Part shown: one piece after another, positions 1 through 20,591 of the stretch | Layout of the letters: each line of letters begins with the position of its first letter | Numbering within the stretch: position 1 is the stretch's first letter | Source: Burkholderiales bacterium | Lineage (GTDB): Bacteria > Pseudomonadota > Gammaproteobacteria > Burkholderiales > Eutrophovitaceae | DNA: 64,000 nt | Assembly: GCA_035560005.1 (NCBI GenBank) | Contig: DATMAN010000031.1 | Coordinates: forward strand, 70,060 to 134,059 | Reading direction: 5' to 3' | Position numbers and translations under genes: made by a program | The notes under the pieces: model-generated | Databases searched by the model: none | What the model saw: only the letters and a program-made list of their open reading frames with translations | What the model was told of the DNA's origin: nothing

Positions 1-502
1 CTTGGGTGAAGAGGTCGCCGCACAGGAGGGTTTGGGTGCTGTATTCCATCAACAGTCCGCACTCCCAGGCGTGAGGCACGTGCGGTGTATCGAACCAACG
101 CACCGCATGCCGGCCCAGTACCAGCAATTCGCCGTCCGTGAGCGCGCGGGCCGGCCGATCGGCCATGTCGTTGACCGACACCGTGGCCGCAATCCGTCCG
201 CACACCGGCACGGCCTGGGGCGCCGTCGCCAGCCATTGGTTCAGCGAGCCGCATTCGTCGGCCTCGAAATGCGAGAAGGCGACGTAGCTCAGGCGATGGA
301 CCGGCATGACGTGCGCGACGGCTTGGCGTACCAGCGAGAAAAGCCTGCGCGGGCCGGTATGGAACAGCATTGGGGCGTCGTCCACGATGAGGTACTGGTT
401 GAAGCTGAACTGTGAACCGGGAATGGTTACCGGCGTGTTGATGCGGTAGATGCCGTCGGCGATTTCGTGGATGTTGGTACCGAATTGCGGGTTGCTGAGC
501 AT
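1..502 (-). CDS. MBL-fold metallo-hydrolase (ODP/flavodiiron-N-domain-like), partial; C-terminus lies outside the window
   Basis: Absent from the ORF track because it runs off the window. Minus-strand translation from ATG 502 reads MLSNPQFGTNIHEIADGIYRINTPV..MLFHTGPRRLF..SYVAFSHFEADECGSLNQWL. AGGAGG lies 6 nt upstream. Carries the H-x-E-x-D metal motif. Confidence 0.7.
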   Translation of the reverse strand, partial: MLSNPQFGTNIHEIADGIYRINTPVTIPGSQFSFNQYLIVDDAPMLFHTGPRRLFSLVRQAVAHVMPVHRLSYVAFSHFEADECGSLNQWLATAPQAVPVCGRIAATVSVNDMADRPARALTDGELLVLGRHAVRWFDTPHVPHAWECGLLMEYSTQTLLCGDLFTQ

Positions 503-583
503 GTCTGCCTCCTTTGTTGTGGGCACAAGGGTGTGTAACGGGGAGGCGCTTCGTTACACTTCCTTGGCAAAGGCCGGAAAGGT

Positions 584-1171
584 ATGCTCGGCTGCTTGAA
601 CAACCTTGACCAGGCAGACAACCTCGAAGATTCCGCCTTGGCGCGGCGGATCGCGGCTGCCGGAGCCGATGGCGACCGGATGGCCGAGGCCGAGCTATGC
701 CGGCGCCTGGCTCCGCGCGTGCGCTTCTATGGCCTGAAGCATTTGCGCGACGAGCAGGCCGCGGCCGACCTCGTTCAACAGGTGCTGCTGATGGTCCTGG
801 AACGGCTCAGATCGGGCAAGGTCCGGCAGCCGGAAATGCTCGGGTCCTTCATGCTGGGCATGTGCCGGATGGTCGTGCTGGACATGAAGCGCAACTACGC
901 GCGCCGCGAACGTCTGCTGCAGACCTTCGCGGCTGACGTTCCCGCCGCCGACACCTCGTTCTCGCCGCGCCTGGATCAGGCGAAGCTTCTGCGCTGCCTG
1001 GATCGATTGCCCGAGCGCGAGAAGTCGGTCCTGGTGATGACCTTCTACGACGACCAGCGTGCGGCACAGGTGGCCACGGAATTGGGGATTTCCGAGACAA
1101 ACGTCAGAGTGATCCGGCACCGCGGGCTGCAGCGTCTGCGCGATTGCCTTCAGACAAGGAGCGTGTCATGA
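584..1171 (+). CDS. ECF-type RNA polymerase sigma-70 family factor
   Basis: Region 2 (DLVQQVLLMVLERL) and region 4 HTH (LPEREKSVLVMTFYDDQRAAQVATELGISETNVRVIRHRGLQRLR). Its stop overlaps the start of the anti-sigma gene. Confidence 0.9.
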   Translation: MLGCLNNLDQADNLEDSALARRIAAAGADGDRMAEAELCRRLAPRVRFYGLKHLRDEQAAADLVQQVLLMVLERLRSGKVRQPEMLGSFMLGMCRMVVLDMKRNYARRERLLQTFAADVPAADTSFSPRLDQAKLLRCLDRLPEREKSVLVMTFYDDQRAAQVATELGISETNVRVIRHRGLQRLRDCLQTRSVS

Positions 1172-3693: not shown

Positions 3694-4209
3694 TTACCTC
3701 GCGACTTGCACCAGCACGCGGCGGTTCTTCTGCTTGTCCGCCGCCGTCTTCTCCGGCGAGACCAGTGGCTTGGAGGAGCCGACCCCGATCGGCTTGCAGG
3801 CAAGCTGCATGCCCTTGTCCTTGAGCGCTTTGCACACCGTACGGGCGCGGGCGAGTGAGAGCATCTGGTTGAACTCAGCAGTCCCGTCGGCGTCGGTGTG
3901 CCCTTCGGCGGTGACGTAGAGATCCGGAAACGCCGCCTTCAGCGCCTTGGAGTTGTCGGTGATGATCTTCAGCAGCCCGTCGATGCGCTTCTCGTTGCCG
4001 GGTGCGAACTCGGCCTTTCCGGTCTTGAACTGGAACTGACCATCCTTGATCTGCTGCTGCGCCAGTTTCTTGTTCACCGTGTCGAGCAGCGATTTGTCCT
4101 TCATCTCGCTCAGCCTGGGAACGCCGTCGAGTTTGGGCAGATCCACCGCCGTCGCGGAGGACCCCTGCATGAGCAACAGGCTGGCGGCGGCTACCAACAT
4201 CGAGCGCAT
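3694..4209 (-). CDS. OmpA-family (OmpA_C-like) secreted/periplasmic protein
   Basis: Signal peptide MRSMLVAAASLLLMQGSSATA. OmpA_C signature YVTAEGHTDADGTAEFNQMLSLARARTV..NRRVLVQV. Confidence 0.8.
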   Translation of the reverse strand: MRSMLVAAASLLLMQGSSATAVDLPKLDGVPRLSEMKDKSLLDTVNKKLAQQQIKDGQFQFKTGKAEFAPGNEKRIDGLLKIITDNSKALKAAFPDLYVTAEGHTDADGTAEFNQMLSLARARTVCKALKDKGMQLACKPIGVGSSKPLVSPEKTAADKQKNRRVLVQVAR

Positions 4210-4379
4210 GACGATTCACCCTGGAGAGTTCGAACGGCCCAAAGTATAGAGGACGGCGGCCCGCCACGGGGCCTGCCAGCGGCAGCCTGCGGAATAACCG
4301 ACCGGACCCGCCGCTATTTGTAGTCAATTCGTACCCGCCGCCTCGCTAGGCTGTTCTTGCGTCGAGGGAGGTCGAGCAG

Positions 4380-4577
4380 ATGAATGCGGTCGGTGTCTAT
4401 GTTGTCCGTCTCTACCGAAGGGATGCTTTGACGCTTGCGGGCGTGGTGGAATCGGTCGAAAGCGGCGAGCAATTGCCGTTTCACTCCACCGAGCAGTTGT
4501 GGCGCGCCCTTCACAAGCTGCCGTCTCCCCGACGAGCCATCCAGAGCGCCAAACCAGACGAGGAGGACATGCCATGA
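4380..4577 (+). CDS. Small hypothetical protein (65 aa), translationally coupled to the next gene
   Basis: GGAGG 9 nt upstream of the ATG. The stop overlaps the downstream ATG (ATGA). Sequence MNAVGVYVVRLYRRDALTLAGVVESVESGEQLPFHSTEQLWRALHKL. Confidence 0.45.
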   Translation: MNAVGVYVVRLYRRDALTLAGVVESVESGEQLPFHSTEQLWRALHKLPSPRRAIQSAKPDEEDMP

Positions 4578-5083
4578 AGAGAGGTTTCGTTTCAGTAATG
4601 GCGATCGCAGTAGCCGGGGTCGTGCTGTCGACCGAGTCTCTTGCCGGCAGGGTCACCATGCCCAAGGAGGGCAGCTACGAGTTCGACTTTTGCCCCATCG
4701 GTCGTGGCAAGGTCTTTTCAGCGGGCGACAAGCTCTTCGTCATGAATTACGATCTTGAAGCGGTCCTGAGATCCACGCCAGCGGGGAAGGCGTTCGACCG
4801 CATGGGCGCCCGATGCTTCGGAATCTATTCGAACATCAGCGGGCGTCAGCAGGAAGCCGGAATATGCGAGCTGACGGACCTCGATGGAGACAAGTGGTGG
4901 ATGGACTACCGCGGCAATCCGGACGGCAAAGGCGGTACTTACACATCCGTGCATGGCACGGGAAAGTATGAAAGCATGATTCTGCGGGGCGAGTACCGCA
5001 TCGACAACGATTGGGGCAGCATTTCGAAGGAAGTCAGTTTTCAAGGCTGCAACCCCAACAAGGGTGCCTACAAGCTGAAGTAG
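4574..5083 (+). CDS. Secreted hypothetical protein (169 aa, 4 Cys, beta-rich)
   Basis: Signal peptide MKRGFVSVMAIAVAGVVLSTESLAG. G+C about 52-57% in hand-counted lines, clearly below the flanks. Confidence 0.7.
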   Translation: MKRGFVSVMAIAVAGVVLSTESLAGRVTMPKEGSYEFDFCPIGRGKVFSAGDKLFVMNYDLEAVLRSTPAGKAFDRMGARCFGIYSNISGRQQEAGICELTDLDGDKWWMDYRGNPDGKGGTYTSVHGTGKYESMILRGEYRIDNDWGSISKEVSFQGCNPNKGAYKLK

Positions 5084-5205
5084 CGCATGCAGGGCTCCGC
5101 GTGATGGCTTGAGTCCAGAATCGGGCCTGCGCATACTGCCGAGCAGGGTAGGGCCGCAGTCGTGGGTCCCATCCGTTCGCCCACGAGTCGGGAGGGGGCT
5201 CCGGG

Positions 5206-8200
5206 ATGAGTAAGACGGCATCGCCAGCCAAGATCAGCCGGCCGCGATTGTTCGACGTGGTGCCGCGCGAGCGGCTGTTCGAGCTGCTCGACGGCAACCG
5301 CGGCCGGCCGCTGATCTGGATTGCTTCTCCGCCCGGCGCGGGCAAGACGGCGCTCATTGCCAGCTATCTCGAGGCGCGCAGCATCCCGACTGTCTGGTAT
5401 CAGGTCGACGCGAGCGATACGGATCCGGCGACGTTCTTTCACTATTTGTCCCTGGCCGTGGAGCCCTTGCGCGAGGGCGATGATTCTCCGTTGCCATGCT
5501 TCGTCGCCGAACACCTGGCCGATCTGCCGGCCTTCGCGCGCCTCTACTTCCGTGCCTTTTTCGCACGGCTTCCGCAGGGCGTGGTTCTGGTTTTCGATAA
5601 CTACCAGGAGATCCCGGAGGACGCACTGCTGCACGATATCGTCTGCCAATGTGTCGCGGAGACACCGAGCGACAGTTCGGTGATTTGCGTCAGTCGTGCG
5701 GAAGCGCCGCGGTACTTCGTCCAGTTTGCCGCGCGTGGCGCCATGGTCCTGGTCGGCTGGGAGAAGCTGCAACTGACGCTGGATGAGGTCCGTGCGGTGT
5801 CGCTGCGACGCGGGGTCGGCGACGAATGGCTGATCCATGCGCTGCACCAGCAATCGCAGGGATGGGCTGCAGGTGTCACGCTGATGCTGGAGCGTCTGGG
5901 GCACCTGGACTGCAGCGGCAGAGAGCTTCCGTCCGATTCCCGCGAGTCGGTCTTCAACTACTTCGCCAGTCTCATTTTCGACCGTGTGCCGGAGTCGATG
6001 CGCCATGTCCTGCTATCGGTTGCGTTCCTTCCACAGGTCACACCCGCACTCGCGCGCGAGCTGAGCGGTCGACCGGATGCCGCGACGGTACTGGAGGATC
6101 TGTACCGCCGCAGGATGTTCACCGACCGCAGGCCTGGCCCGGAACCCGTGTACCAGTTTCATGCACTGTTTCAGGAGTTTCTGAGAGCGCGGGCGAGAAA
6201 TGTGCTCCCACCGAAGCAGTTTGATGCGTTGGTCGGTCGCACGGCTTTCGCTTTGCAGGTAGCGGACAATGTCGATGCGGCGATCAGCCTTTGGATCGCA
6301 GCGCGGGATTGGCAGCCGGTAGTGCAGTTGATTGTGAAGGAGGCGAAAGGACTGCTGAACAGTGGCCGAAGGCAGACGCTTGAGCGCTGGATAGGCGAAG
6401 TACCGGAATCGGGGCGGTACAGCTCGCCGTGGCTCGTGTATTGGCTTGGATGCTCGCAATTGCAGACGAGGCCGGAGCAAGGGGTAAAGACCCTCGAGAA
6501 TGCACTGGGACTCTTTCATAGCGCCGAGGACCGCCGAGGTTCTATCGCCTGTCTTACGGCACTGTTGGGCGGTGGATATATCGGGTATGCGGCGATCGGC
6601 GCGATGGACAGGTGGCTCGACGAGTTGCAAGCAAGCTCAGAAGAATTCTCGGACGCCCTTGCGTCGGATAAACAGTTGCAGGCGTGGGGCGCCCTGTGTT
6701 GCGCGCTGATATACGTCAGGCCATGGGATCCCATGACGACGCAGGCTCTCGAGAGTGTCGAGGAGCTTCTTCCGCGTTGCGCAGACGCTGGCATCGCCCT
6801 TACCGCAGCGATTGGAGCAGTGAGTGCCTGCATGCTGACCGGTGATCTTGAGCGTGGCGAGCGAATCCTGGAACAAGCGACAGAACTCGCGGAACGGAGG
6901 GGAGCAAGCCCTTCGGAGGCAGCATGGTGGTACTGTCAAGTTGGGTACCTGAAATTTGTCGAGGCTCAGTACAACGACGCGTTGCGTTACCTCGACAAAG
7001 CGATTGCCATTGCGGAATCAAATGCGCTTCGCTCGACGATACGAGAGATCATGCTGCATCGCGTGACCGTCGAGTGCCGGACACTGGGATGGGCCAGGGC
7101 AAGCGCGACGCTCACCGAAATAGACGCTCTGTCGAGATCGAGCCGACCCATGAATGGATCACTCTATTGGTTGCACCAGGCGCGCAGGGCACGCTTCAAT
7201 GGGCAATCTGAGCAAGCTGTCGAGTTTGCGCTGGCAGGTTATCAGGCCGCGGTCCGATCCGGGGCCAGACTGTGGGAAATGATGATCGGCCTGTGCGTGG
7301 CTGATCTCCTGATCGACGCCGGGCGACTCAAAGAAGCCAAGCCCCTGATTGCGCGGTCCGCGGAATTGATCGGCCGGACCCCTGTGTATGACTGCTATCG
7401 CGCGGCCCTGTCCTTTGTGGAGTCGTGGACTGCTCTCGTAGCGGGTGACCCGCAGCACGCCACGCTGCGACTGCGCGAAGCGCTTGGGCTGGCGCAGGGA
7501 GGAACCCGTCGCTACTACCTCTGTTTTCTTTACTGTGCTTTGCCTCGTCTGTTCATGTTTGCACTCGAGGAGGGAATCGAGGTGTCTGTTGTGCAGGGCT
7601 TGATCGGGTTGTTTCGTTTGAAACCTCCTACGGATGCGCCGGAGAACTGGCCGTGGCCAGTGCGGATTCTTACCTTGGGCCGGTTTGAAGTGCAGGTCAA
7701 TGGCCGACCGATGGAGTTTTCCCGCAAGCTGCCACGCAAGACCTTGCTGCTTCTGAAAGCAATCGTCGCGCACGGTGGACGCAATGTGCCGGAACAGGTG
7801 TTGTGCGATGCACTTTGGGGCGACGAAGAGGCGGATGCCGCATTGAACGCGCTCGCCATTACCATCGTCCGTCTGCGCAAACTTCTGGGAACGAACGAGG
7901 CCGTGCTGTATCAAGCCGGCAGAATCACCCTGAATGCGGAGCTATGCTGGGTCGACACGTGGATCTTCGAGAAGTACATTGCGGACAATGGTTCGGCCGG
8001 CAGGTTGCTGAGCATTTACCGAGGTGCCTTTCTTCCGGACGAGGAAGGCGAACCGTGGAGCGTGGCGGCGAGGGAACGGTTGCGCGGCAAGTTCATCGAC
8101 GCCCTGTCGAGGTACGGCGCGACGCTGGAGCAGCAGGGCGACTGGCAGGGTGCGGTTCAATGCTATCTGCGTGGTATCGACGCCGATCCGATCGTCGAGA

Positions 8201-8487
8201 CATTCCACCAAGGGTTGATGCGCTGCTATGAGCGGCTGGGCCGGCGCACCGAAGCGCTGAGTGCGTACCGCCGGCTCAAGCAGACGCTGTCAGTAGTGCT
8301 GGGAGTTGCGCCTTCCGAGTCGACTCAGCAGCTTTTCCAGACGATGCTTCAACGGCAGAGTGCGCTGGGGAGCGGTGCGCGCGAACGCTCCTCGCACCTC
8401 GATGCGGAAGACGGTACTGGTTCCCAGCGCGAGGACACTGGCAATGTCGTGCGGAAACTGCCGCCACGCCGCAGGCAGGTGCGTTGA
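5206..8487 (+). CDS. STAND-class ATPase transcriptional regulator: MalT-like N-terminal NTPase, helical/TPR sensor region, C-terminal OmpR-type wHTH + BTAD
   Basis: MalT-like N-terminus (AKISRPRLFDVVPRERLFELL). Walker A SPPGAGKT and Walker B VVLVFDNYQE. C-terminus RILTLGRFEVQVNGRPMEF..KTLLLLKAIVAHGG..LCDALWGD followed by BTAD (WVDTWIFEKY..ETFHQGLMRCYERLGRRTEALSAYRRLKQTL). Confidence 0.85.
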   Translation: MSKTASPAKISRPRLFDVVPRERLFELLDGNRGRPLIWIASPPGAGKTALIASYLEARSIPTVWYQVDASDTDPATFFHYLSLAVEPLREGDDSPLPCFVAEHLADLPAFARLYFRAFFARLPQGVVLVFDNYQEIPEDALLHDIVCQCVAETPSDSSVICVSRAEAPRYFVQFAARGAMVLVGWEKLQLTLDEVRAVSLRRGVGDEWLIHALHQQSQGWAAGVTLMLERLGHLDCSGRELPSDSRESVFNYFASLIFDRVPESMRHVLLSVAFLPQVTPALARELSGRPDAATVLEDLYRRRMFTDRRPGPEPVYQFHALFQEFLRARARNVLPPKQFDALVGRTAFALQVADNVDAAISLWIAARDWQPVVQLIVKEAKGLLNSGRRQTLERWIGEVPESGRYSSPWLVYWLGCSQLQTRPEQGVKTLENALGLFHSAEDRRGSIACLTALLGGGYIGYAAIGAMDRWLDELQASSEEFSDALASDKQLQAWGALCCALIYVRPWDPMTTQALESVEELLPRCADAGIALTAAIGAVSACMLTGDLERGERILEQATELAERRGASPSEAAWWYCQVGYLKFVEAQYNDALRYLDKAIAIAESNALRSTIREIMLHRVTVECRTLGWARASATLTEIDALSRSSRPMNGSLYWLHQARRARFNGQSEQAVEFALAGYQAAVRSGARLWEMMIGLCVADLLIDAGRLKEAKPLIARSAELIGRTPVYDCYRAALSFVESWTALVAGDPQHATLRLREALGLAQGGTRRYYLCFLYCALPRLFMFALEEGIEVSVVQGLIGLFRLKPPTDAPENWPWPVRILTLGRFEVQVNGRPMEFSRKLPRKTLLLLKAIVAHGGRNVPEQVLCDALWGDEEADAALNALAITIVRLRKLLGTNEAVLYQAGRITLNAELCWVDTWIFEKYIADNGSAGRLLSIYRGAFLPDEEGEPWSVAARERLRGKFIDALSRYGATLEQQGDWQGAVQCYLRGIDADPIVETFHQGLMRCYERLGRRTEALSAYRRLKQTLSVVLGVAPSESTQQLFQTMLQRQSALGSGARERSSHLDAEDGTGSQREDTGNVVRKLPPRRRQVR

Positions 8488-8562: not shown

Positions 8563-9081
8563 ATGCGTAATCGGGACATACGCGTCGTGAGATCCATCAC
8601 CGTTGTCGCACTCTGGCTGACAGTGCATACGGCCGCCGTCTTCGCCGAACCGTGGAATCCGGGCGAGGCGCTGGACGTGTGCCTGGAGGCCGCGCTCAAA
8701 CAGCGGCCGGGTGTCGTCACGGCGTGGCGCCAGGCCGGAGGCGGGGACAAACCTCCGTATGCGGTGAGCGTGCTGAACGCGGACGGCAGGATCGCGGAGG
8801 CCACCTGTGATCCGACCAATCCCGCGAGCCTGCAGTTCAAGGACAAAGGCGGGCTGTACCGTTACGAGATGTACCGGCGCGCAACGTTTCCTGAGGCCAA
8901 GGCTCGCAGTGCAGCGCCGGAGATCTTCGTGGGTCCGGTCCGAATCATCGCAATGGACCTGAGGGTCAGCTTCACCGGCAAACCGCATTTCGTCTATCAG
9001 ATGTTCCTGCCAAGCGGTCACAAGGCGGTGGTGAGCGTCGAGGCGACGGTCGGCCGGCTGACGAAAGCCGAGGTGGAGTGA
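8563..9081 (+). CDS. Secreted protein, possibly two PepSY-like repeats
   Basis: Signal peptide (ITVVALWLTVHTAAVFA). Two units of the pattern A..A......G.V........Y.V.....G, each ending in V.V-type strands. The domain call is tentative. Confidence 0.55.
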   Translation: MRNRDIRVVRSITVVALWLTVHTAAVFAEPWNPGEALDVCLEAALKQRPGVVTAWRQAGGGDKPPYAVSVLNADGRIAEATCDPTNPASLQFKDKGGLYRYEMYRRATFPEAKARSAAPEIFVGPVRIIAMDLRVSFTGKPHFVYQMFLPSGHKAVVSVEATVGRLTKAEVE

Positions 9082-12225: not shown

Positions 12226-12929
12226 TGCTGGTTTTGAGCAAGGTCTCCGCGGGCTACGGCGGCTTTCAGGCGCTGTTCGACGTGAGCCTCGAGGTCAAGG
12301 CGGGTGAGACCGTTGCGGTGATCGGCCCCAATGGCGCGGGCAAGACGACGCTGTTGCGGGTAATCTCGCGGCTGATCGACGCGACTGCCGGAGAGCTCAT
12401 GATGGAAGGCCGGCGTCTGAATGACGTGCCGCCACACGAGGTGGTGGGATGCGGCATTGCGCACGTGCCGGAGAACCGGCGGCTGTTCCCGCGGCTCACC
12501 GTCGAGGAGAACCTGCGCATGGGCGCATTCGTGCCGCAGGCTCGGGCGCTGTGCGTTCAGCGTCTGGAACGCGTCTACCAGTTGTTTCCGCGCATGAAGG
12601 AGCGCCGGCATCAGCCGGCCGGAACGCTTTCCGGTGGCGAGCAGCAGATGTGCGCCATCGGCCGGGCCCTCATGTCCGGCCCGCGGCTGCTGCTGCTCGA
12701 CGAACCTTCGGCGGGACTGGCGCCGGTCGTGGTGCAGGCGATCTTCGAGTCCGTGCGCCGGATGAGCGCGGAGGGCTATACCGTGTTGATCGTCGAGCAG
12801 AACATCCGCCAGGTACTCAAGATCGCCACCCGCGGCTACCTGCTCGAAACCGGGCGCATCCGCGCCGCCGGCACGGCCGCGCAACTGCTCGACACCGACG
12901 AACTCAAGAAAGCTTACCTGGGACTCTGA
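12225..12929 (+). CDS. livF: Branched-chain-amino-acid-type ABC transporter ATP-binding protein (LivF-like)
   Basis: TGATG overlap with livG. GPNGAGKTT, LSGGEQQM, LLLLDEPS. Ends KKAYLGL. Confidence 0.9.
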   Translation: MLVLSKVSAGYGGFQALFDVSLEVKAGETVAVIGPNGAGKTTLLRVISRLIDATAGELMMEGRRLNDVPPHEVVGCGIAHVPENRRLFPRLTVEENLRMGAFVPQARALCVQRLERVYQLFPRMKERRHQPAGTLSGGEQQMCAIGRALMSGPRLLLLDEPSAGLAPVVVQAIFESVRRMSAEGYTVLIVEQNIRQVLKIATRGYLLETGRIRAAGTAAQLLDTDELKKAYLGL

Positions 12930-12933
12930 CACG

Positions 12934-13071
12934 AAGAGCCAAACACGAAGGCACGAAGGAAACTCACTGGGAGAATAACGGAACACGCGGGCCGGAATAT
13001 GTTGTCTGATTTCATTGGGCATTCTTGTATTCGTTTTTCTTCGTACCTTCGTGTCTTCGTATTTCGCTCTT
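12934..13071. repeat. Imperfect inverted repeat inside the liv-type operon. The 26-nt arms (12934-12959 and 13046-13071) match at 23/26 and are separated by 86 nt.
   Basis: Left arm aagagccaaacacgaaggcacgaagg. Reverse complement of the right arm aagagcgaaatacgaagacacgaagg. Three ACGAAG hexamers per side (12931, 12945, 12953 on +; 13039, 13047, 13055 on -). The segment is low in G+C. Confidence 0.6.
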
Positions 13072-13099
13072 TGGGTTTGATCGTGCTGTCCAATAGCAA

Positions 13100-13969
13100 A
13101 TGGAGATCTTCGACATCTTTCTGCTGGAAGCGGTGGTCAACGGCGTGCTGCTGGGCGGCATCCTGGCGCTGCTGGCGCTGGGGCTGAACCTGATCTTCGG
13201 CGTGATCGACGTGGTGTGGATCTGCTACGCCGAGCTGATCATGATCGGCATGTACGCTGTGTACTACCTGCACGTCGAGTATTCCTGGCCGTTGTGGCTG
13301 GCCTTCGCTGCGGCCGTCGCGATGGTCTCGGTGCTGGGCATGGCGCTGCACCAGTTCGTGATCCGGCCGGTGCTCTCCGCCGAGCCGATCAATCAGCTGC
13401 TGGTCACTGGAGGCGTGCTCTTCCTGCTGCAGGGCGCGGCTACGCTCGCCTTCGGCGTGGAGTTCCGCAATCTCGGCGTCAAGTTGCCTACCTTCGAGTT
13501 GAGCGGGATGTTTCTCAGTGTGGCGCGACTGACCGCTTTCGCGATCGCGCTGGGTTGCATGATTGCCGTATACGCCTTCCTCAAACGCACGTATCTCGGC
13601 ACCGCGATCCGCGCCATCTCGCAGGACCGCGGGATCATGCCGCTGATGGGCGTGAATCCGAGCCACATCTTTCTGATCACGTCCGCGCTGGGTGGGGCGC
13701 TGGCCGGGGTCGCCGCCTGCCTCCTGGTGCTTCAGTACGACATCCACCCGGCGATCGGACTTTCGTTCGGGCCGATCGCCTTCCTGGTATGCGTGCTGGG
13801 CGGGCTCGGAAACATGATCGGCGGGTTTCTCGCGGCGTTCATCTTCGCCCAGTTCATTTCCGTGGGCGGGTATTTCTTCCACCTCGAGTGGGGCTACGTG
13901 CTGGCCTTCCTGTTCTTCATCGGTTTCATGTTCTGGCGGCCGCAGGGTTTGCTCGGAGGCAAGGCATGA
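13100..13969 (+). CDS. livH: Branched-chain-amino-acid-type ABC transporter permease (LivH-like)
   Basis: MEIFDIFLLEAVVNGVLLGGILALLALGLNLIFGV.. Polytopic membrane protein. No obvious RBS; the start directly follows the inverted-repeat element. Confidence 0.9.
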   Translation: MEIFDIFLLEAVVNGVLLGGILALLALGLNLIFGVIDVVWICYAELIMIGMYAVYYLHVEYSWPLWLAFAAAVAMVSVLGMALHQFVIRPVLSAEPINQLLVTGGVLFLLQGAATLAFGVEFRNLGVKLPTFELSGMFLSVARLTAFAIALGCMIAVYAFLKRTYLGTAIRAISQDRGIMPLMGVNPSHIFLITSALGGALAGVAACLLVLQYDIHPAIGLSFGPIAFLVCVLGGLGNMIGGFLAAFIFAQFISVGGYFFHLEWGYVLAFLFFIGFMFWRPQGLLGGKA

Positions 13970-15050: not shown

Positions 15051-15770
15051 GTGAAGGCACTTCCGCATCAACCAACGCTGGTCGATCAAGTCTACGAGGC
15101 GATCCTGTCGGAGATCTCAGCGGGCAAGTTCGCGCACGATAGCCGGCTGATTCAGGAAGAACTCGCCGAGTCGCTGGGTGTGTCGCGTCAGCCGATACAG
15201 CAGGCGCTGCTGCTGCTGAAGAGCCACGGCATCCTGCGCGATGCACCCGGGCGCGGATTGATGGTGGCGCCGCTGGAAGCCGAATTCGTGCGCAATCTGT
15301 ACGAGGTTCGGGGCGTGCTCGACGGGCTCGCCAGCAGCAAGGCGGCGGAACGCGCAGCCGTCACCGCCCGCAAGGAGGGCCCTGCCTTCATCAAACGCGG
15401 CCGCGAAGCGGTGGCCAGCCGTTCGATCCCGAAGATGATCGCGGCCGACATGGACTTCCATTTCTTCCTCTACGGCTTGTCGAGAAACCCGCTGATCGCC
15501 GAAGCCAGTTCGCCCTATTGGAGCTACCTGCGGCGAGTGATGGGTGAGGTGCTTCTGTACGACGAGACACCGGCAGAGATCTGGGACCAGCACGAGGCCA
15601 TTCTCGATGCGGTCATCGCAGCCGACCCGCAAAAAGCAGGGCAATTGGCGCGCGAGCACATCGCCCAGGCATCGGACACGATCACCGAGCGACTGGCGGC
15701 GCGGGCACCTGCCGGGCCGGCTCGCGTTGCATTGACGCGCGTGCGGCGCAGGCGCGCCCAGGGCGTCTAG
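15051..15770 (+). CDS. GntR family transcriptional regulator (FadR/FCD subfamily)
   Basis: GTG start. wHTH (LIQEELAESLGVSRQPIQQALLLLKSHGILRD) followed by an FCD-like helical C-domain. Confidence 0.9.
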   Translation: MKALPHQPTLVDQVYEAILSEISAGKFAHDSRLIQEELAESLGVSRQPIQQALLLLKSHGILRDAPGRGLMVAPLEAEFVRNLYEVRGVLDGLASSKAAERAAVTARKEGPAFIKRGREAVASRSIPKMIAADMDFHFFLYGLSRNPLIAEASSPYWSYLRRVMGEVLLYDETPAEIWDQHEAILDAVIAADPQKAGQLAREHIAQASDTITERLAARAPAGPARVALTRVRRRRAQGV

Positions 15771-16011: not shown

Positions 16012-17118
16012 TTACATCGCGTACTTTTTCACTGCCGCCTCGTCCCAGTCCAGACCGTTGCCGGGAGTGTCGGGCACGATGGCGTGGCCGTCTTTCGCCA
16101 GGAAGGGCTCGGCGAGGAAGGGCTCGGCCCAGTCGCTCCATTCCAGCCAGTCGGCGGATTCGCTCACGCGCAGCAGTTGCGCGGAGACCGGCGTGTAGAG
16201 GTGGCTCGACAGTGGCAAGCCCGCGGCGCCGGCGATCGCGGCCGAGCGCATCCAGCCGGTGACGCCGCCGATGCGCATGAGATCCGGCATGTAGAGGTCT
16301 GCCGCTTTGGCCAACACCGCCTTGTGGAACTCGCGCGGGCCATAGATGTTCTCGCCGATCTGGATCGGCGTTTTCATGTCGCGCGCGATCTGCGCGCAGC
16401 CTTCGTAGTTGTCGTACACGATCGGCTCTTCGAACCAGTACAGCCCCTGGTCGTCCAGCCCGTGCATGCGCTGCAGCGCCTCTCCGAAGGTGAGCCCCTG
16501 GTTGAAGTCGCTCATCAGGATGATGTCGTCGCCGACCGCGTCGCGCACGATGCGGATCGCCTCGATGTCGTCCTTCAGGCTCGGCCGGCCGAGGCGCATC
16601 TTGATCGCCCTGAAGTTGCCTTCTTCCACCAGCGACCTGGCTTCGGAGGCAAGCTTTTCTTTCGGGATCAGCCACAGGCCGTTGGTGTTGTAGGCGCGGA
16701 CCGGGCCGGGGCTACCCCCGAGCAGGGTCGCGAGCGGCAGGCCGGCGGCACGTGCGAGCGCGTCCCAGATCGCCATGTCGAGCCCGGACAGCGCGATCAA
16801 GGTCATGCCCTGGCGGCCGTTCAGATGCAGCGTCTTCATCGCCCCGCCGTACACGTCGAGCGGCGCGATCGGCTTGCCGATGAACTCCCCGGCGATGTTC
16901 TCGATCACTTGGGCGATCGGCTTCACCGCCTTGTGCACATACGGCTCGAGATAGCTGCGGCCGACCACGCCTTCGCGCGTGTGCACGTCGATCAGGATGA
17001 ACGGCCAGTTCGGATACTCGCCGACCCTGGAGACGATCGGCCGGCGCAGCGGCACGGACAGCGCCTGCACCTGCACGCTTTCCAGCGTGAGCCTGATCGC
17101 AGCGGTTCCGGTTTTCAT
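16012..17118 (-). CDS. Mandelate racemase / muconate lactonizing enzyme family (enolase superfamily) protein
   Basis: Capping domain (FILIDVHTREGVVGRSYLEPY) and barrel (AIKMRLGRP..DFNQGL..WFEEP..). GGAGGA-type RBS. Confidence 0.9.
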   Translation of the reverse strand: MKTGTAAIRLTLESVQVQALSVPLRRPIVSRVGEYPNWPFILIDVHTREGVVGRSYLEPYVHKAVKPIAQVIENIAGEFIGKPIAPLDVYGGAMKTLHLNGRQGMTLIALSGLDMAIWDALARAAGLPLATLLGGSPGPVRAYNTNGLWLIPKEKLASEARSLVEEGNFRAIKMRLGRPSLKDDIEAIRIVRDAVGDDIILMSDFNQGLTFGEALQRMHGLDDQGLYWFEEPIVYDNYEGCAQIARDMKTPIQIGENIYGPREFHKAVLAKAADLYMPDLMRIGGVTGWMRSAAIAGAAGLPLSSHLYTPVSAQLLRVSESADWLEWSDWAEPFLAEPFLAKDGHAIVPDTPGNGLDWDEAAVKKYAM

Positions 17119-17298
17119 TTTTTCAGTCCTCCGTGAAACGATCCTGAAGAACCCAAGTACGCCCGGAACGGTCTCGGCGCAACGCTGACCCCCGGCGAAT
17201 GCTTTTCCCCGTCATAGACCTGCTCAAAGATAAATCCTAAGTCTATGTTTCAAAATAATATGATGAAACCTCAGAAATAAATTCCGCACATCCGCATT

Positions 17299-17318
17299 GC
17301 ATTCGGAATTCAGAATGC
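17299..17318. promoter_or_regulatory. Candidate GntR-family operator: 20-bp near-perfect palindrome in a strongly AT-rich intergenic patch
   Basis: gcattcggaattcagaatgc is self-complementary at 18/20 (GCATTCnGAATTCnGAATGC). The preceding 60 nt (17221-17280) are about 27% G+C by hand count. Confidence 0.5.
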
Positions 17319-17360
17319 TACACTGCACGCCTGTAACGACCCTGAACAGGAGTCTGATTG

Positions 17361-17570
17361 ATGCGACCGCCACCCCCGGACCCGACTCTAGTGTTCCGGG
17401 CCTACGGCAATTCTGTCGAAGATTTCAGCCGGCAAACTCGTCATCGACGCTCGGCTGCGGCAGGAGGAACTGGCCGAGTCGTTGGGCGCTTCGCGCCAGC
17501 CGGTTCAGCACGCGCTGCTTCGCTAAATATGCACACCTGCACACATCCTGCGTGACGCAGCCCAAGCCCT
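17361..17570 (+). pseudogene. Truncated, frameshifted remnant of a second GntR-family gene (N-terminal wHTH only)
   Basis: MRPPPPDPTLV.. (compare MKALPHQPTLV). A 1-nt deletion near 17408 is followed by AILSKISAGKLVIDARLRQEELAESLGASRQPVQHALLR, then TAA at 17524 (compare AILSEISAGKFAHDSRLIQEELAESLGVSRQPIQQALLLLK). Nucleotide similarity continues to about 17570 (catcctgcgtgacgca). Confidence 0.7.
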
Positions 17571-18300: not shown

Positions 18301-20031
18301 ATGAGAAACACCAGAAAGAACAGGATCGGAGCGCTAGTGATCGCCCCCATCATGGCCATGGCGACCGCTCATGGCATGGACTACGTGCCAGTCACCGACG
18401 CCAGGCTGAAAAATCCTGAACCGGCCAACTGGCTGCAGTATCGCGGCAACTACGCTGGCTGGGGCTACAGTCCGCTGAAGCAGATCAACTCCAAGAACGC
18501 GAAGAACCTGACCGTGGCCTGGTCGTTCGCTACCGGGCAGGCGGAGGGCCATCAGTCGCCGCCGATCGTCAACAACGGCTATATGTTCATCACCACGCCG
18601 GGCAGCCAGGTGATCGCCCTCAACGCCAAAACCGGCGAAGAGATCTGGCGCTTCAAGAAAGAGCTGCCGAGGGATCTGCTGCAGCTGCACCCGACCAACC
18701 GCGGCGTAGCGCTGTATGGCGACAAAGTGTACTACACCACCCTCGATACCTTCTTGGTCGCGCTGGACGCCAAAACCGGCAAGCAGGTGTGGGAGTCGAA
18801 GATCGGCGAGTGGAAGCACGGGTACTACACCACGGTGGCGCCGCTCGCCGTCAAGGGCAAGATCCTTGTCGGCATTTCCGGCGGCGAGATGGGCGTTCGC
18901 GGATTCGTCAAGGCATTCGACGCCGAGAGCGGCAAGGAAGCGTGGGTATTTCACACCGTTCCCGCACCTGGAGAACCGGGCGGCGACACTTGGCCCGGCG
19001 AAACTTACAAGACCGGCGGCGGCGCCACCTGGGTCACCGGCACATACGACCCGGAAACCAACCTAACCTTCTGGGGCACCGGCAACCCCGGCCCGTGGCC
19101 CACCGAAGGCCGCAAGGGCGATAATCTCTACACGACCTCGGTGGTGGCGCTCGATGCGGATACCGGCAAACTCAAGGGCTACCACCAGTACCACTGGCAC
19201 GACGCCTGGGACTGGGATGAGGTGTCCGCGCCGGTGCTCATCGACACGGAGATCGGCGGCAAGAAGGTCAAGACCGCCGTGCACGCCGGCCGCAACGGCT
19301 ATCTCTGGGTACTGGAGCGCACGAAGGACAAGATGAACTTCCTCGCCGCGCACAAGTATGTCGAGCAGGATGTGTTCACCAGCATCGATCCGAAGACCGG
19401 CCGGCCGTCCTACGATCCCGCGCGCACCCCGGGCAAGGTGGCGACCACGTTCTGCCCGTCGCTGTGGGGCGGCAAGGACTGGCTGCCGGAAGCCTACAAC
19501 CCGGACACCGGCCTGTTCTACATCCCAGCCACCAACAACCTGTGCTCCGAATTGCCCGAGCCCGAAGAAGGCCTTGAGTACCAACCGGGTGGACTGTACA
19601 TCGGCTATCCGATTCCCGACGTACTGGGCAGCCTGCGCCTGGGCAAGAATGCGCACAAGAGCATCGGAGAAGTGCAGGCGTGGAACCTGAAGACCGGCAA
19701 GCAAGTCTGGACGCACACTTACAAGGGCATCAACTGGGGGCCGCTGCTGACCACCGGCGGTAACCTGGTGTTCGGTGGAGGCACGGCCGACCGTAAGTTC
19801 CGCGCCTTCAACGCTACTACCGGCGAAGTTGTGTGGGAGTACCCCACGCCGTCGGGCGTAACCGGAGTGCCGACCTCCTACGAGATCGATGGCGTCCAGT
19901 ACGTGGCCGTGCAATCAGGCTGGGGCGTGGATGCGCAGCGCATGCAAGCCGGCATCGATGCCGCCACCAACACCAAGACCAATGTCCCGCAGGGCGGCAC
20001 GGTCATGGTGTTCAAGCTGGGCAATAAGTAA
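18301..20031 (+). CDS. PQQ-dependent dehydrogenase, methanol/ethanol (quinoprotein ADH) family
   Basis: Signal peptide. Propeller W-motifs. GISGGEMGVRG (metal Glu), GTGNPGPW (Asn), HDAWDWDE (D304-W-D306). GGAGG RBS. Confidence 0.9.
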   Translation: MRNTRKNRIGALVIAPIMAMATAHGMDYVPVTDARLKNPEPANWLQYRGNYAGWGYSPLKQINSKNAKNLTVAWSFATGQAEGHQSPPIVNNGYMFITTPGSQVIALNAKTGEEIWRFKKELPRDLLQLHPTNRGVALYGDKVYYTTLDTFLVALDAKTGKQVWESKIGEWKHGYYTTVAPLAVKGKILVGISGGEMGVRGFVKAFDAESGKEAWVFHTVPAPGEPGGDTWPGETYKTGGGATWVTGTYDPETNLTFWGTGNPGPWPTEGRKGDNLYTTSVVALDADTGKLKGYHQYHWHDAWDWDEVSAPVLIDTEIGGKKVKTAVHAGRNGYLWVLERTKDKMNFLAAHKYVEQDVFTSIDPKTGRPSYDPARTPGKVATTFCPSLWGGKDWLPEAYNPDTGLFYIPATNNLCSELPEPEEGLEYQPGGLYIGYPIPDVLGSLRLGKNAHKSIGEVQAWNLKTGKQVWTHTYKGINWGPLLTTGGNLVFGGGTADRKFRAFNATTGEVVWEYPTPSGVTGVPTSYEIDGVQYVAVQSGWGVDAQRMQAGIDAATNTKTNVPQGGTVMVFKLGNK

Positions 20032-20070
20032 CTGCCAGACGGCAAGACGCGCGTCGTCTGCTGCTTCGAA

Positions 20071-20110
20071 GACGCGGACCCGTAATTACCGGGTCCGCGT
20101 CATTGTTTCC
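20071..20110 (+). terminator. Stem-loop downstream of the PQQ dehydrogenase gene
   Basis: gacgcggacccg / taattac / cgggtccgcgtc: a perfect 12-bp stem followed by attgtttcc. Confidence 0.6.
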
Positions 20111-20213
20111 GGATGGTCGTGAAATCAGAAGCTTCTGTTCGCCGTTCGCAGAGCACTGCGCCATCGACTCAGATCAGGATTGCGTGCGTTGGACGAAAGA
20201 AATGACAGCCCCG

Positions 20214-20380
20214 CAAAGGCTCCAGATGCCTGGCGCCGACCACGCCTTCGCGGGCGAGCACGTCGATCAAAACAGGTGGTCACTTGGGATAGACCCCCAA
20301 GGACCCGATCGGTAGCGCAGCCCTAACGATAGTGTCCGGTCCCGGTCGCGAGCGCGTGTGTCTTCTTTTCCAAGCGTCAT
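20214..20380 (-). pseudogene. Frameshifted N-terminal remnant of a second mandelate-racemase-family gene
   Basis: MTLGKED..TLSLGLRYRSGPWGSIPSDHLF, a frameshift, then LIDVLAREGVVGARHLEPL (compare ALSVPLRRPIVSRVGEYPNWPFILIDVHTREGVVGRSYLEPY). About 60 nt aligns at roughly 80% nucleotide identity (tgatcgacgtgc..cgcgaaggcgtggtcggc). Confidence 0.7.
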
Positions 20381-20591
20381 GCCTAACTGCTTGTCAGGCT
20401 CTACGGACTCATGGCGATCCCTGAAAACGCAAGAGCTCGAAACAGGTAGCGTCCGGAAGAAGACGCGCACGGACCTGGGCCGCCAGTAGCAGGAAAGCCT
20501 GTCGATCAACGGATTGAGACCTCGGCATCGGCGCCAGGCAGATGGCTTCGGCCGACGCGCAGAATTCTTGACCCTGGAGGCGGAAACACCC

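Follow-up and report, generated by a model that had tools for sequence, protein, structure and literature searches.

What kind of system is encoded by a compact three-gene block which keeps its gene order among ever-changing neighbours in uncultured Burkholderiales? The block considered here lies at positions 4380-8487 of a 64,000-nt stretch (hereafter the window) of contig DATMAN010000031.1 from a Burkholderiales bacterium, and comprises plus-strand genes for a 65-amino-acid (aa) protein, a 169-aa exported protein and a 1093-aa regulator of the STAND class that carries a SARP-type module. By analogy with the AfsR/afsS pair, it is proposed, with a probability of about 0.6, that the SARP-STAND protein is an activator driving an operon composed of the small-protein gene and the gene of an exported cargo protein. 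A preliminary description of the window had suggested a self-contained regulatory module in which the STAND protein controls its neighbours, and this suggestion is supported by the conservation of the trio, the unrelated genes flanking it, the coding selection on the 65-aa gene and the presence of a predicted operator in 19 of 19 loci.

The regulator and the predicted operator

The layout given in the preliminary description (a 65-aa open reading frame (ORF) with a good ribosome-binding site (RBS) and a stop overlapping the next start as ATGA, a 169-aa ORF, a 122-nt gap and a 1093-aa ORF) was recovered in full, with the same coordinates (Table 1). In every related locus with enough sequence, about 20 besides that of the window (L001-L009, L011-L024, L094, L111), the three genes share one strand and keep their order, and the genes flanking them differ from locus to locus. 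In the window the trio stands between an OmpA-like gene (3694-4209) and a gene at 8563-9081. Five further contexts are provided by homologues on long contigs, again in the order small gene, barrel gene, STAND-BTAD gene. There the trio is accompanied by TRAP transporter and WYL genes, by an island of TIR, HNH, helicase and toxin-antitoxin genes, by a second STAND gene and a CHRD gene, by amino-acid ABC transporter and dehydrogenase genes, or by P-II and NAD synthase genes. Movement of the trio as a unit is well supported by these comparisons.

The 1093-aa product had been taken for a STAND-BTAD regulator, and the profile searches agree. Pfam matches include AAA_16, TPR_12 (39.6 bits), Trans_reg_C and BTAD, while residues 7-420 resemble MalT (NCBIfam NF003420, E=4.7e-45; 154 against an equivalog cut-off of 537), and both the Walker A and the Walker B motif are intact in the translation. 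Searches of PDB sequences aligned residues 7-401 with MalT (8bob, E=6e-23), residues 842-1054 with the SARP part of AfsR (8hvr, E=2.6e-7) and residues 824-1052 with EmbR (2fez, E=3.4e-4). No GerE/LuxR helix-turn-helix (HTH) was detected by Pfam in the C-terminus, which matches Trans_reg_C and BTAD instead. Since the NOD matches MalT and the C-terminus matches AfsR and EmbR, the protein is, judging by its domains, a MalT-type STAND switch bearing a C-terminal SARP module in place of the LuxR HTH. The AfsR equivalog model of NCBIfam (NF053617) covers the SARP part alone, at 37 bits against a cut-off of 1430. Homologues of the regulator bear WHD_MalT (PF25873) plus BTAD. The named sources of its 728 relatives at E<=1e-20 are Burkholderiales metagenome-assembled genomes (MAGs), and the only names these relatives carry are "BTAD domain-containing putative transcriptional regulator" or "MalT/SARP".

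Two 11-bp direct repeats, with a family consensus of about ATC(C/G)GTA+N3, occupy the usual -35 position ahead of the small gene. When the upstream sequences were aligned, the block ATTTGTAG(Y)CAATCCGTA(S)CC proved to be conserved, with a TAnnnT hexamer after it, and both the repeat box and the -10-like hexamer stand at a constant distance from the small gene in all 19 distinct window-type loci. The hexamer reads TAGCCT, TAGAGT, TAAAGT or similar in the aligned loci, and CAGGCT in L001. A scan with the sigma-70 consensus found no -35 element and no complete promoter at this place, as is to be expected if the promoter, as predicted, depends on an activator. The strict pattern ATYBGTA-N4-ATYBGTA occurs perfectly once in the 64 kb of the window, where 0.07 occurrences would be expected at <=1 mismatch, and once per locus in 50 loci. 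One further match with a single mismatch (ATTCGTGCGCAATCTGTA, 15284-15301, plus strand) falls within a coding region that resembles, by eye, a GntR/FCD-type regulator. As it is located in a coding region with no small, barrel or STAND gene nearby, it is probably a chance occurrence; no second gene of any of these three kinds is present in the window.

The repeat box is not confined to the close relatives of the window locus. A back-translated YVVRIYRR[DE] DNA pattern was used to gather 87 more distant metagenome loci of the broad small-protein family described below, 85 of the 87 matches being within small-family ORFs, and the tandem repeat was found across them. When 50 non-redundant upstream regions were scored by the best 10-mer self-match at each offset from 6 to 17, offset 11 gave a mean of 7.92/10, with 33 of 50 regions reaching >=8/10. 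All other offsets gave means of 5.3-5.8, with 0-4 of 50 regions at that level, so that the signal is specific to offset 11. The sequence of the repeat varies by subfamily (ATCCGTACCC, ATCGGTAGGC, ATCTGTAAC, ATCGGAAAGA, CTGTATCCCGG), and each class of repeat is paired with its own recognition-helix sequence in the winged HTH (wHTH), which is consistent with direct recognition. The afs box bound by AfsR is likewise formed by two 11-bp direct repeats overlapping the -35 region (PMC10936776), and the box upstream of the small gene is predicted to be a SARP-type operator of the same geometry.

AfsR of Streptomyces coelicolor directly activates the adjoining small-protein gene afsS (PMC10972967). 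In both systems a regulator of ~1000 aa, combining a SARP module (wHTH plus BTAD) with a STAND NTPase and TPR, adjoins the known or, here, predicted target gene for a protein of ~63-65 aa, and the small gene is preceded by a 22-bp box (here the predicted operator at 4316-4337 of the window) whose two 11-bp direct repeats stand in place of the -35 element (PMC10936776; PMC10972967). The domain order, however, is SARP-NTPase-TPR in AfsR and NTPase-sensor-SARP here, the NTPase is of the NB-ARC type there and of the MalT type here, and the repeat CGTT(T/C)ATCG there corresponds to ATC(C/G)GTA here. The host here is an uncultured Gram-negative betaproteobacterium, the small gene is coupled to one for an exported protein, and no AfsK-type kinase is linked to the locus. 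AfsS is a repeat-containing, probably disordered protein, whereas a beta3-alpha fold is predicted for the 65-aa protein; to our knowledge no relation between the two is known, their sequences not having been aligned. The locus is AfsR/afsS-like and not a member of the AfsR-AfsS system.

Three further comparisons place the regulator. The SARP family has been described as exclusive to actinobacteria and tied to antibiotic clusters (PMC10972967). Its module is N-terminal there but C-terminal here, where the relatives come from Betaproteobacteria/Burkholderiales MAGs. With MalT and the LAL regulators the protein shares its N-terminal 400 residues, the WHD_MalT domain of its homologues and the logic of an ATP- and ligand-gated multimerising activator. 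It differs from them in having wHTH plus BTAD instead of the C-terminal LuxR/GerE HTH, in the lack of a maltose context and in the predicted tandem 11-bp repeats, which are not MalT boxes. EmbR of Mycobacterium tuberculosis aligns over the wHTH and BTAD region, but it possesses an FHA domain, lacks a STAND NTPase and is controlled by Ser/Thr kinase phosphorylation. No literature was found on Gram-negative MalT-SARP hybrids, on the small-protein family or on bacterial periplasmic dirigent-like proteins, in a search that left out most subscription journals, so that this absence is not proof.

Table 1. Coordinates of genes, protein domains and predicted signals of the cassette (window positions unless residues are given).
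Feature	Position	Strand	Remarks
Repeat 1 of predicted operator	4316-4326	+	ATTTGTAGTCA
Repeat 2 of predicted operator	4327-4337	+	ATTCGTACCCG
-10-like hexamer	4347-4352	+	TAGGCT (TAnnnT); 9 bp after repeat box
65-aa small gene	4380-4577	+	RBS GAGGGAGG at 4364-4371
Shine-Dalgarno sequence of cargo gene	4560-4567	+	GAGGAGGA; inside last codons of 65-aa gene
169-aa exported barrel (cargo) gene	4574-5083	+	start overlaps stop of 65-aa gene, ATGA 4574-4577
Spacer between cargo and regulator genes	5084-5205		122 nt
Predicted stem-loop after cargo stop	5094-5126	+	RNAalifold, 14 loci; loop encloses -35-like hexamer of regulator promoter
Predicted sigma-70-type regulator promoter	5109-5137	+	TTGAGT 5109-5114, 17-nt spacer, CATACT 5132-5137
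1093-aa STAND-SARP regulator gene	5206-8487	+	
MalT-type NTPase/NOD of regulator	residues 7-420, nt 5224-6465		Walker A GAGKT, residues 43-47; Walker B VLVFD
Helical/TPR sensor of regulator	residues ~430-820		
Predicted OmpR-type wHTH of regulator	residues 841-897, nt 7726-7896		Pfam PF00486 Trans_reg_C, 26.1 bits, cut-off 26.2
BTAD of regulator	residues 935-1047, nt 8008-8346		Pfam PF03704 BTAD, 77.3 bits, cut-off 22.1

The small-protein family and the predicted exported barrel

The 65-aa ORF proved to be a real gene. Its 77 homologues are nearly all 65 aa long, their alignment contains 21 invariant columns, and a ratio of nonsynonymous to synonymous substitution rates (dN/dS) of ~0.14, obtained from 120 pairs, indicates purifying selection. 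In view of the confidently predicted fold, the conserved length and the dN/dS value, a chance ORF was rejected. The conserved motifs are VYVVRxYRR, GVVESVxSGE, PF, LW and LPSP. AlphaFold2 modelled a beta-beta-beta-alpha arrangement (strands at residues 7-12, 20-25 and 31-34, helix at 37-46) with a disordered tail, the predicted local distance difference test (pLDDT) score being 76 overall and >90 in the core. The protein has no signal peptide and is predicted to be cytoplasmic. The tails of the family are specific to the subfamily (LPSPRR here), and the acidic end of the tail in the window is accounted for by the cargo Shine-Dalgarno sequence encoded there.

Searches for relatives of known function were largely negative. 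The 65-aa protein has no match in Pfam, NCBIfam, PADLOC or PDB, Foldseek returned nothing for its model at E<=0.001, and when each of the 84 sequences in the broad small-protein alignment was scanned against family libraries, scattered chance matches were the only result. A profile of the 65-aa family run against PDB sequences produced only a weak, non-significant similarity to doublecortin (DCX; E ~0.03-0.05, profile positions 9-46), which is not relied on here. The similarity, seen in the shared pattern VRFYRNGD...G....V.....F.SFD.LL..L, could hint at a truncated beta-grasp-like fold.

At E<=0.001 the small-protein profile retrieved 598 clusters, formed at the 50% identity level. Nearly all are stand-alone proteins of 57-90 aa with the consensus SYVVRIYRR..., G(V/I)VE.V..G...F....ELW..L and a variable tail. 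In the broad loci the usual order is a STAND-SARP gene (~1050-1100 aa), 60-220 nt, the small gene, 6-20 nt and a third gene. Of the 65 loci in which this could be tested, 51 have a STAND/SARP homologue next to the small gene and in the same orientation, 47 times upstream and four times downstream, the latter being the arrangement of the window. The third gene encodes an exported protein or lipoprotein, as indicated by a signal peptide or lipobox, in ~31-36 of 44 cases. Its product may be a BACON/Ig-like lipoprotein, a di-haem peroxidase-like, beta-helix/NosD-like or outer-membrane-barrel-like protein, an FG-GAP lipoprotein or a member of a second barrel subfamily with a GGTGxF motif, and many third genes have no Pfam match. 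Gene neighbourhood indicates that the constant partner of the regulator is the small protein, not the 4-Cys barrel.

Unusual members of the family are informative as well. One protein of 145 aa (P0334, L025 366-803) has a LuxR/GerE HTH fused behind its small-family domain, which ties that domain to transcription factors; another one, of 137 aa (P0211), is a tandem duplication of the small-family domain. A few loci have SARP-only regulators of ~280-300 aa consisting of wHTH and BTAD, two of them ahead of the small gene in both L029 (857-2886) and L055, so the partner of the small protein may be the SARP module and not the NTPase or sensor. A small protein of 51 aa with the same kind of repeat box (ATCCATACCCT/ATCTGTACCCT) and three short ORFs upstream was observed in L075, L076, L083, L085 and L098; no STAND/SARP gene adjoins it within the available sequence of these loci.

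The second product of the operon was expected to have a signal peptide and four cysteines, and both were found: a Sec-type signal peptide of ~25 residues at the N-terminus, and C40, C81, C98 and C159, which are invariant or nearly so among 29 homologues. As the preliminary description had it, no motif is recognised in this protein, for neither Pfam nor NCBIfam gives a match, the Dirigent family and related DUFs included, at E<=0.01. Its 115 homologues, mostly of 165-169 aa, are all named hypothetical. The motifs PKEG, FDR and GTGKY (GTGKYEGM in the window protein) are invariant or nearly so, and CELTDLDGDKWWM is near-invariant among window-type homologues. AlphaFold2 (pLDDT 84) predicts a signal-peptide helix followed by an all-beta barrel, whose top Foldseek match in PDB is a plant dirigent protein (6ooc, E=5e-4, probability 1.0). 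The next neighbours are the cyclases PloI4, AbyU and AbmU and then DUF3237 and DUF3224 (probability ~1.0), all with template modelling (TM) scores of 0.45-0.50 and 9-14% identity. Like dirigent and allene-oxide-cyclase-like proteins, the 169-aa protein has a predicted antiparallel beta-barrel of ~140 residues and a GTGxY/F-G motif near the C-terminal strands. Unlike them, it possesses a signal peptide, four conserved cysteines and a DLDGDKWW loop, near-invariant in window-type homologues and altered in the two most distant barrel relatives. The best reading of the model is that of a dirigent-like periplasmic barrel, which would act outside the cytoplasm because of its signal peptide and disulfide cysteines.

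The proposed circuit and competing explanations

The following sequence of events is proposed. The regulator would be made from a weak sigma-70-type promoter of its own (5109-5137) and, with ATP bound and a cytoplasmic signal perceived by its sensor, would multimerise. Two SARP modules would then be placed side by side on the repeats at 4316-4337, taking over the role of the absent -35 element, so that RNA polymerase is recruited to the TAGGCT -10 hexamer and the bicistronic operon 4380-5083 is transcribed. Translational coupling through the ATGA overlap would yield the small protein and the barrel in a fixed ratio. The 169-aa protein would reach the periplasm via Sec as a disulfide-stabilised dirigent-like barrel, probably binding a small hydrophobic or aromatic ligand, and the 65-aa protein would stay in the cytoplasm. 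There it might report the output of the operon to the regulator, most likely by docking of its LPSPRR tail on the TPR sensor. The analysis itself establishes the anatomy of the genes, their domains, the conservation of the cassette and of the operator geometry, the coding selection on the small gene and the predicted folds; we infer DNA binding by the regulator, activation, the ligand of the barrel and everything about the role of the small protein.

The feedback step is put forward tentatively, as less probable than not. A regulatory role for the small protein is suggested by its linkage to the regulator across unrelated cargo, its place under the operator, its subfamily-specific tail motif and the fusion to an HTH. 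Extended to the whole family, the idea is that the 65-aa protein is the founding member of an unnamed family of ~600 clusters, an obligate partner of a Gram-negative SARP branch, and that the two form a joint expression module for exported proteins. A SARP activator, with or without the STAND part, would fire a promoter lacking a -35 element, and the small protein would bind back to the regulator or to RNA polymerase, thereby setting the gain. This extension seems possible, though doubtful on present evidence. If it is true, the family would represent a protein-based feedback device with no characterised counterpart and would offer a first mechanistic handle on AfsS-like small partners of SARPs.

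A number of observations weigh against the activator circuit or parts of it. All of it is built on sequence and structure prediction, and all relatives are known from metagenomes or MAGs. The Trans_reg_C score is 0.1 bit under the Pfam cut-off, TAGGCT is a weak, predicted -10 hexamer, and the gap between it and the repeat box is 9 bp, whereas at afsS it is ~6 bp. Operator class and recognition helix vary together in a way that is confounded with phylogeny, and 14 of the 65 testable broad loci have no adjoining regulator. The fold of the 65-aa protein has no informative structural neighbour, its contact with the regulator is only a proposal, and the dirigent likeness of the barrel holds at the level of fold (TM ~0.5, 9-14% identity). 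Finally, the constant trait of the downstream genes, a signal peptide, is as compatible with an export role of the small protein as with feedback.

The last point leads to the main rival, which owes its standing to the signal peptide shared by the cargo proteins. The small protein may be a cytoplasmic escort of the cargo, that is, a holdase, a targeting factor or a signal-peptide binder, the STAND protein being merely the activator of the operon. In most loci the small gene is indeed coupled to, or lies 6-20 nt upstream of, a gene for a signal-peptide protein or lipoprotein, and the export signal is the sole trait common to otherwise unrelated cargo. However, the small protein follows the regulator family although the folds and sizes of the cargo (136 to 700 aa) differ, some relatives have no exported-protein gene after them (L005 1142-1339, L040), and one is fused to a LuxR-type DNA-binding domain. 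As private chaperones are not normally needed by Sec/Lol substrates either, the escort role appears unlikely.

The remaining explanations fit the data poorly. Biosynthetic clusters are the classic targets of SARPs (PMC10972967), and the structural neighbours of the barrel include dirigent proteins and the cyclases AbyU, AbmU and PloI4. The cassette could accordingly be a remnant or core of a natural-product pathway, with a SARP activator, a dirigent/Diels-Alderase-like cyclase and the small protein as precursor or carrier. The conserved N-terminal domain and variable C-terminal tail of the latter recall some ribosomally synthesised and post-translationally modified peptide (RiPP) precursors. 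Yet no biosynthetic genes are conserved beside the cassette in any context, the barrel, with its signal peptide and disulfide cysteines, would act outside the cytoplasm, and the tails contain no Cys/Ser/Thr-rich cores, which makes a natural-product role improbable. A RiPP precursor as such was rejected: conserved genes for modifying enzymes are lacking in the neighbourhood, and the Shine-Dalgarno sequence GAGGAGGA (4560-4567) of the cargo gene accounts for the acidic residues at the end of the tail.

STAND NTPases are also frequent in defence, and an Avs-like antiviral system might be imagined in which the STAND protein senses an invader and the two small products are effectors. The cassette changes its genomic context, and in L003/L004 it is found among TIR, HNH, SLFN-like helicase, PIN, HepT/MNT and ParE genes. 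This explanation is highly improbable, given that in PADLOC the regulator has no more than a generic TPR match and neither the 65-aa nor the 169-aa protein has any, that the output domain is a DNA-binding activator rather than a nuclease, protease or TIR, that the remaining contexts consist of ordinary metabolic or transport genes, and that no match was found in viral contigs or plasmids. Least credible is RRNPP-like cell-cell signalling, in which the TPR region would perceive a released small protein. The TPR-like repeats, the adjacent small gene and the subfamily-specific tails recall such systems, but the small protein has a well-folded conserved domain and no signal peptide, and neither an exporter nor a processing protease is conserved nearby.

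The activator circuit, if it holds, would extend the SARP DNA-binding module and its operator geometry from actinobacteria to uncultured Gram-negative soil and sediment bacteria. Here the switch is of the MalT type and carries the module at its opposite end, and the predicted targets are exported proteins rather than biosynthetic genes. The ~600-cluster family of ~65-aa proteins was previously unannotated, and its strict linkage to regulators makes its function directly testable. The 22-bp predicted operator, its regulator and the two output genes make up a compact circuit of orthogonal parts that could serve as a synthetic-biology switch. The obvious way to learn the purpose of the module leads through the signal that triggers the regulator and the ligand that the barrel may bind.

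Base composition, mobility and minor features

The cassette had been described as a low-G+C patch of 52-58% between flanking genes of 65-70%. The dip is real, but its size was overestimated, the contrast being ~5 points and not 10. The G+C content of 4380-8487 is 60.9% compared with 66.0% for the whole window, and only 0.8% of windows of equal size are as low (standard deviation 2.1 points). Of the 60-nt lines in 4574-8487, which average 60.9%, only 23% have a G+C content of 52-58%; the range fits scattered lines and, roughly, the 169-aa gene only. By gene, the values are 59.6% (65 aa), 56.9% (169 aa) and 61.3% (1093 aa), and flanking genes were measured at 62-68%, not uniformly at 65-70%. G+C content at third codon positions is 0.68-0.73 in the trio and 0.79-0.87 in four of five measured flanking genes, the fifth (1762-2931) having 0.73. 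Other patches of the window, at ~17.0 kb and ~20.0 kb, are equally low at the 1-kb scale. In 12800-13400, 16500-17500 and 19500-20500 the 1-kb G+C is 0.59-0.61, equal to or below that of the cassette.

Horizontal acquisition of the three genes, which the preliminary description had deduced from this contrast, is plausible in view of the differing contexts and of a higher A+T content in the cassette than in its flanks, seen in 9 of 11 loci. It is not demonstrated. No meaningful direct or inverted repeats and no integrase were detected at the cassette borders in the window, and there is no tRNA gene within 20 kb. A tblastn search of plasmids with the small-protein consensus and the barrel returned nothing, and a DNA pattern scan of viral contigs gave no match, so there is no evidence for plasmid or phage carriage. 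When 185,579 species were scanned, each represented by a single genome, 14 loci only were revealed, all of them in MAGs of Betaproteobacteria/Burkholderiales, bar two oddly labelled ones.

Within the spacer ahead of the regulator gene, GCTTGAG followed by TGCGCATACT at constant spacing occurs in ~14 of 18 loci, and this element is predicted to be the regulator's own constitutive promoter. Its score of 8/12 against the consensus falls under the threshold of a simple scan, which is why it was missed there. The stem-loop surrounding its -35-like hexamer comprises 10 predicted pairs, 7 of them with compensatory double changes, and may be a terminator, an insulator or an mRNA 3'-end element of the operon. 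The window copy forms only 5 of the 7 outer pairs and has no U-tract behind it, so that we can only infer its function. At 5180-5205 a short inverted repeat, GAGTC...GGCTC, holds the regulator RBS GGGAGGGGG in its loop. The repeat is present in most of the related loci, with small differences in several of them, and both arms seldom change.

A frameshifted or truncated regulator was noticed in two MAG copies of the cassette (L012 8818-9051, L020 8814-9037) and a frameshifted small gene in a third (L023 8001-8188), which represent either decaying cassettes or assembly errors. In L003/L004 (1-7400, 12600-16000) the cassette is located in an apparent defence or mobile island with genes for a TIR-kinase, a Y1 transposase, two HNH proteins, an SLFN-like helicase, PIN, HepT/MNT and ParE/Phd, and the spacer between the barrel and STAND genes is unusually long there (385 nt) and contains repeated GC-rich elements. 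A second, divergent module is found on the opposite strand of the same contig in L005 (1142-5588; also in L006). It consists of a secreted CHRD-domain protein, a 1069-aa STAND-BTAD protein 34% identical to that of the window and a paralogous 65-aa protein (MGLTEVFIVRIYRRN...). As the L005 contig holds both, two modules can coexist in one genome.

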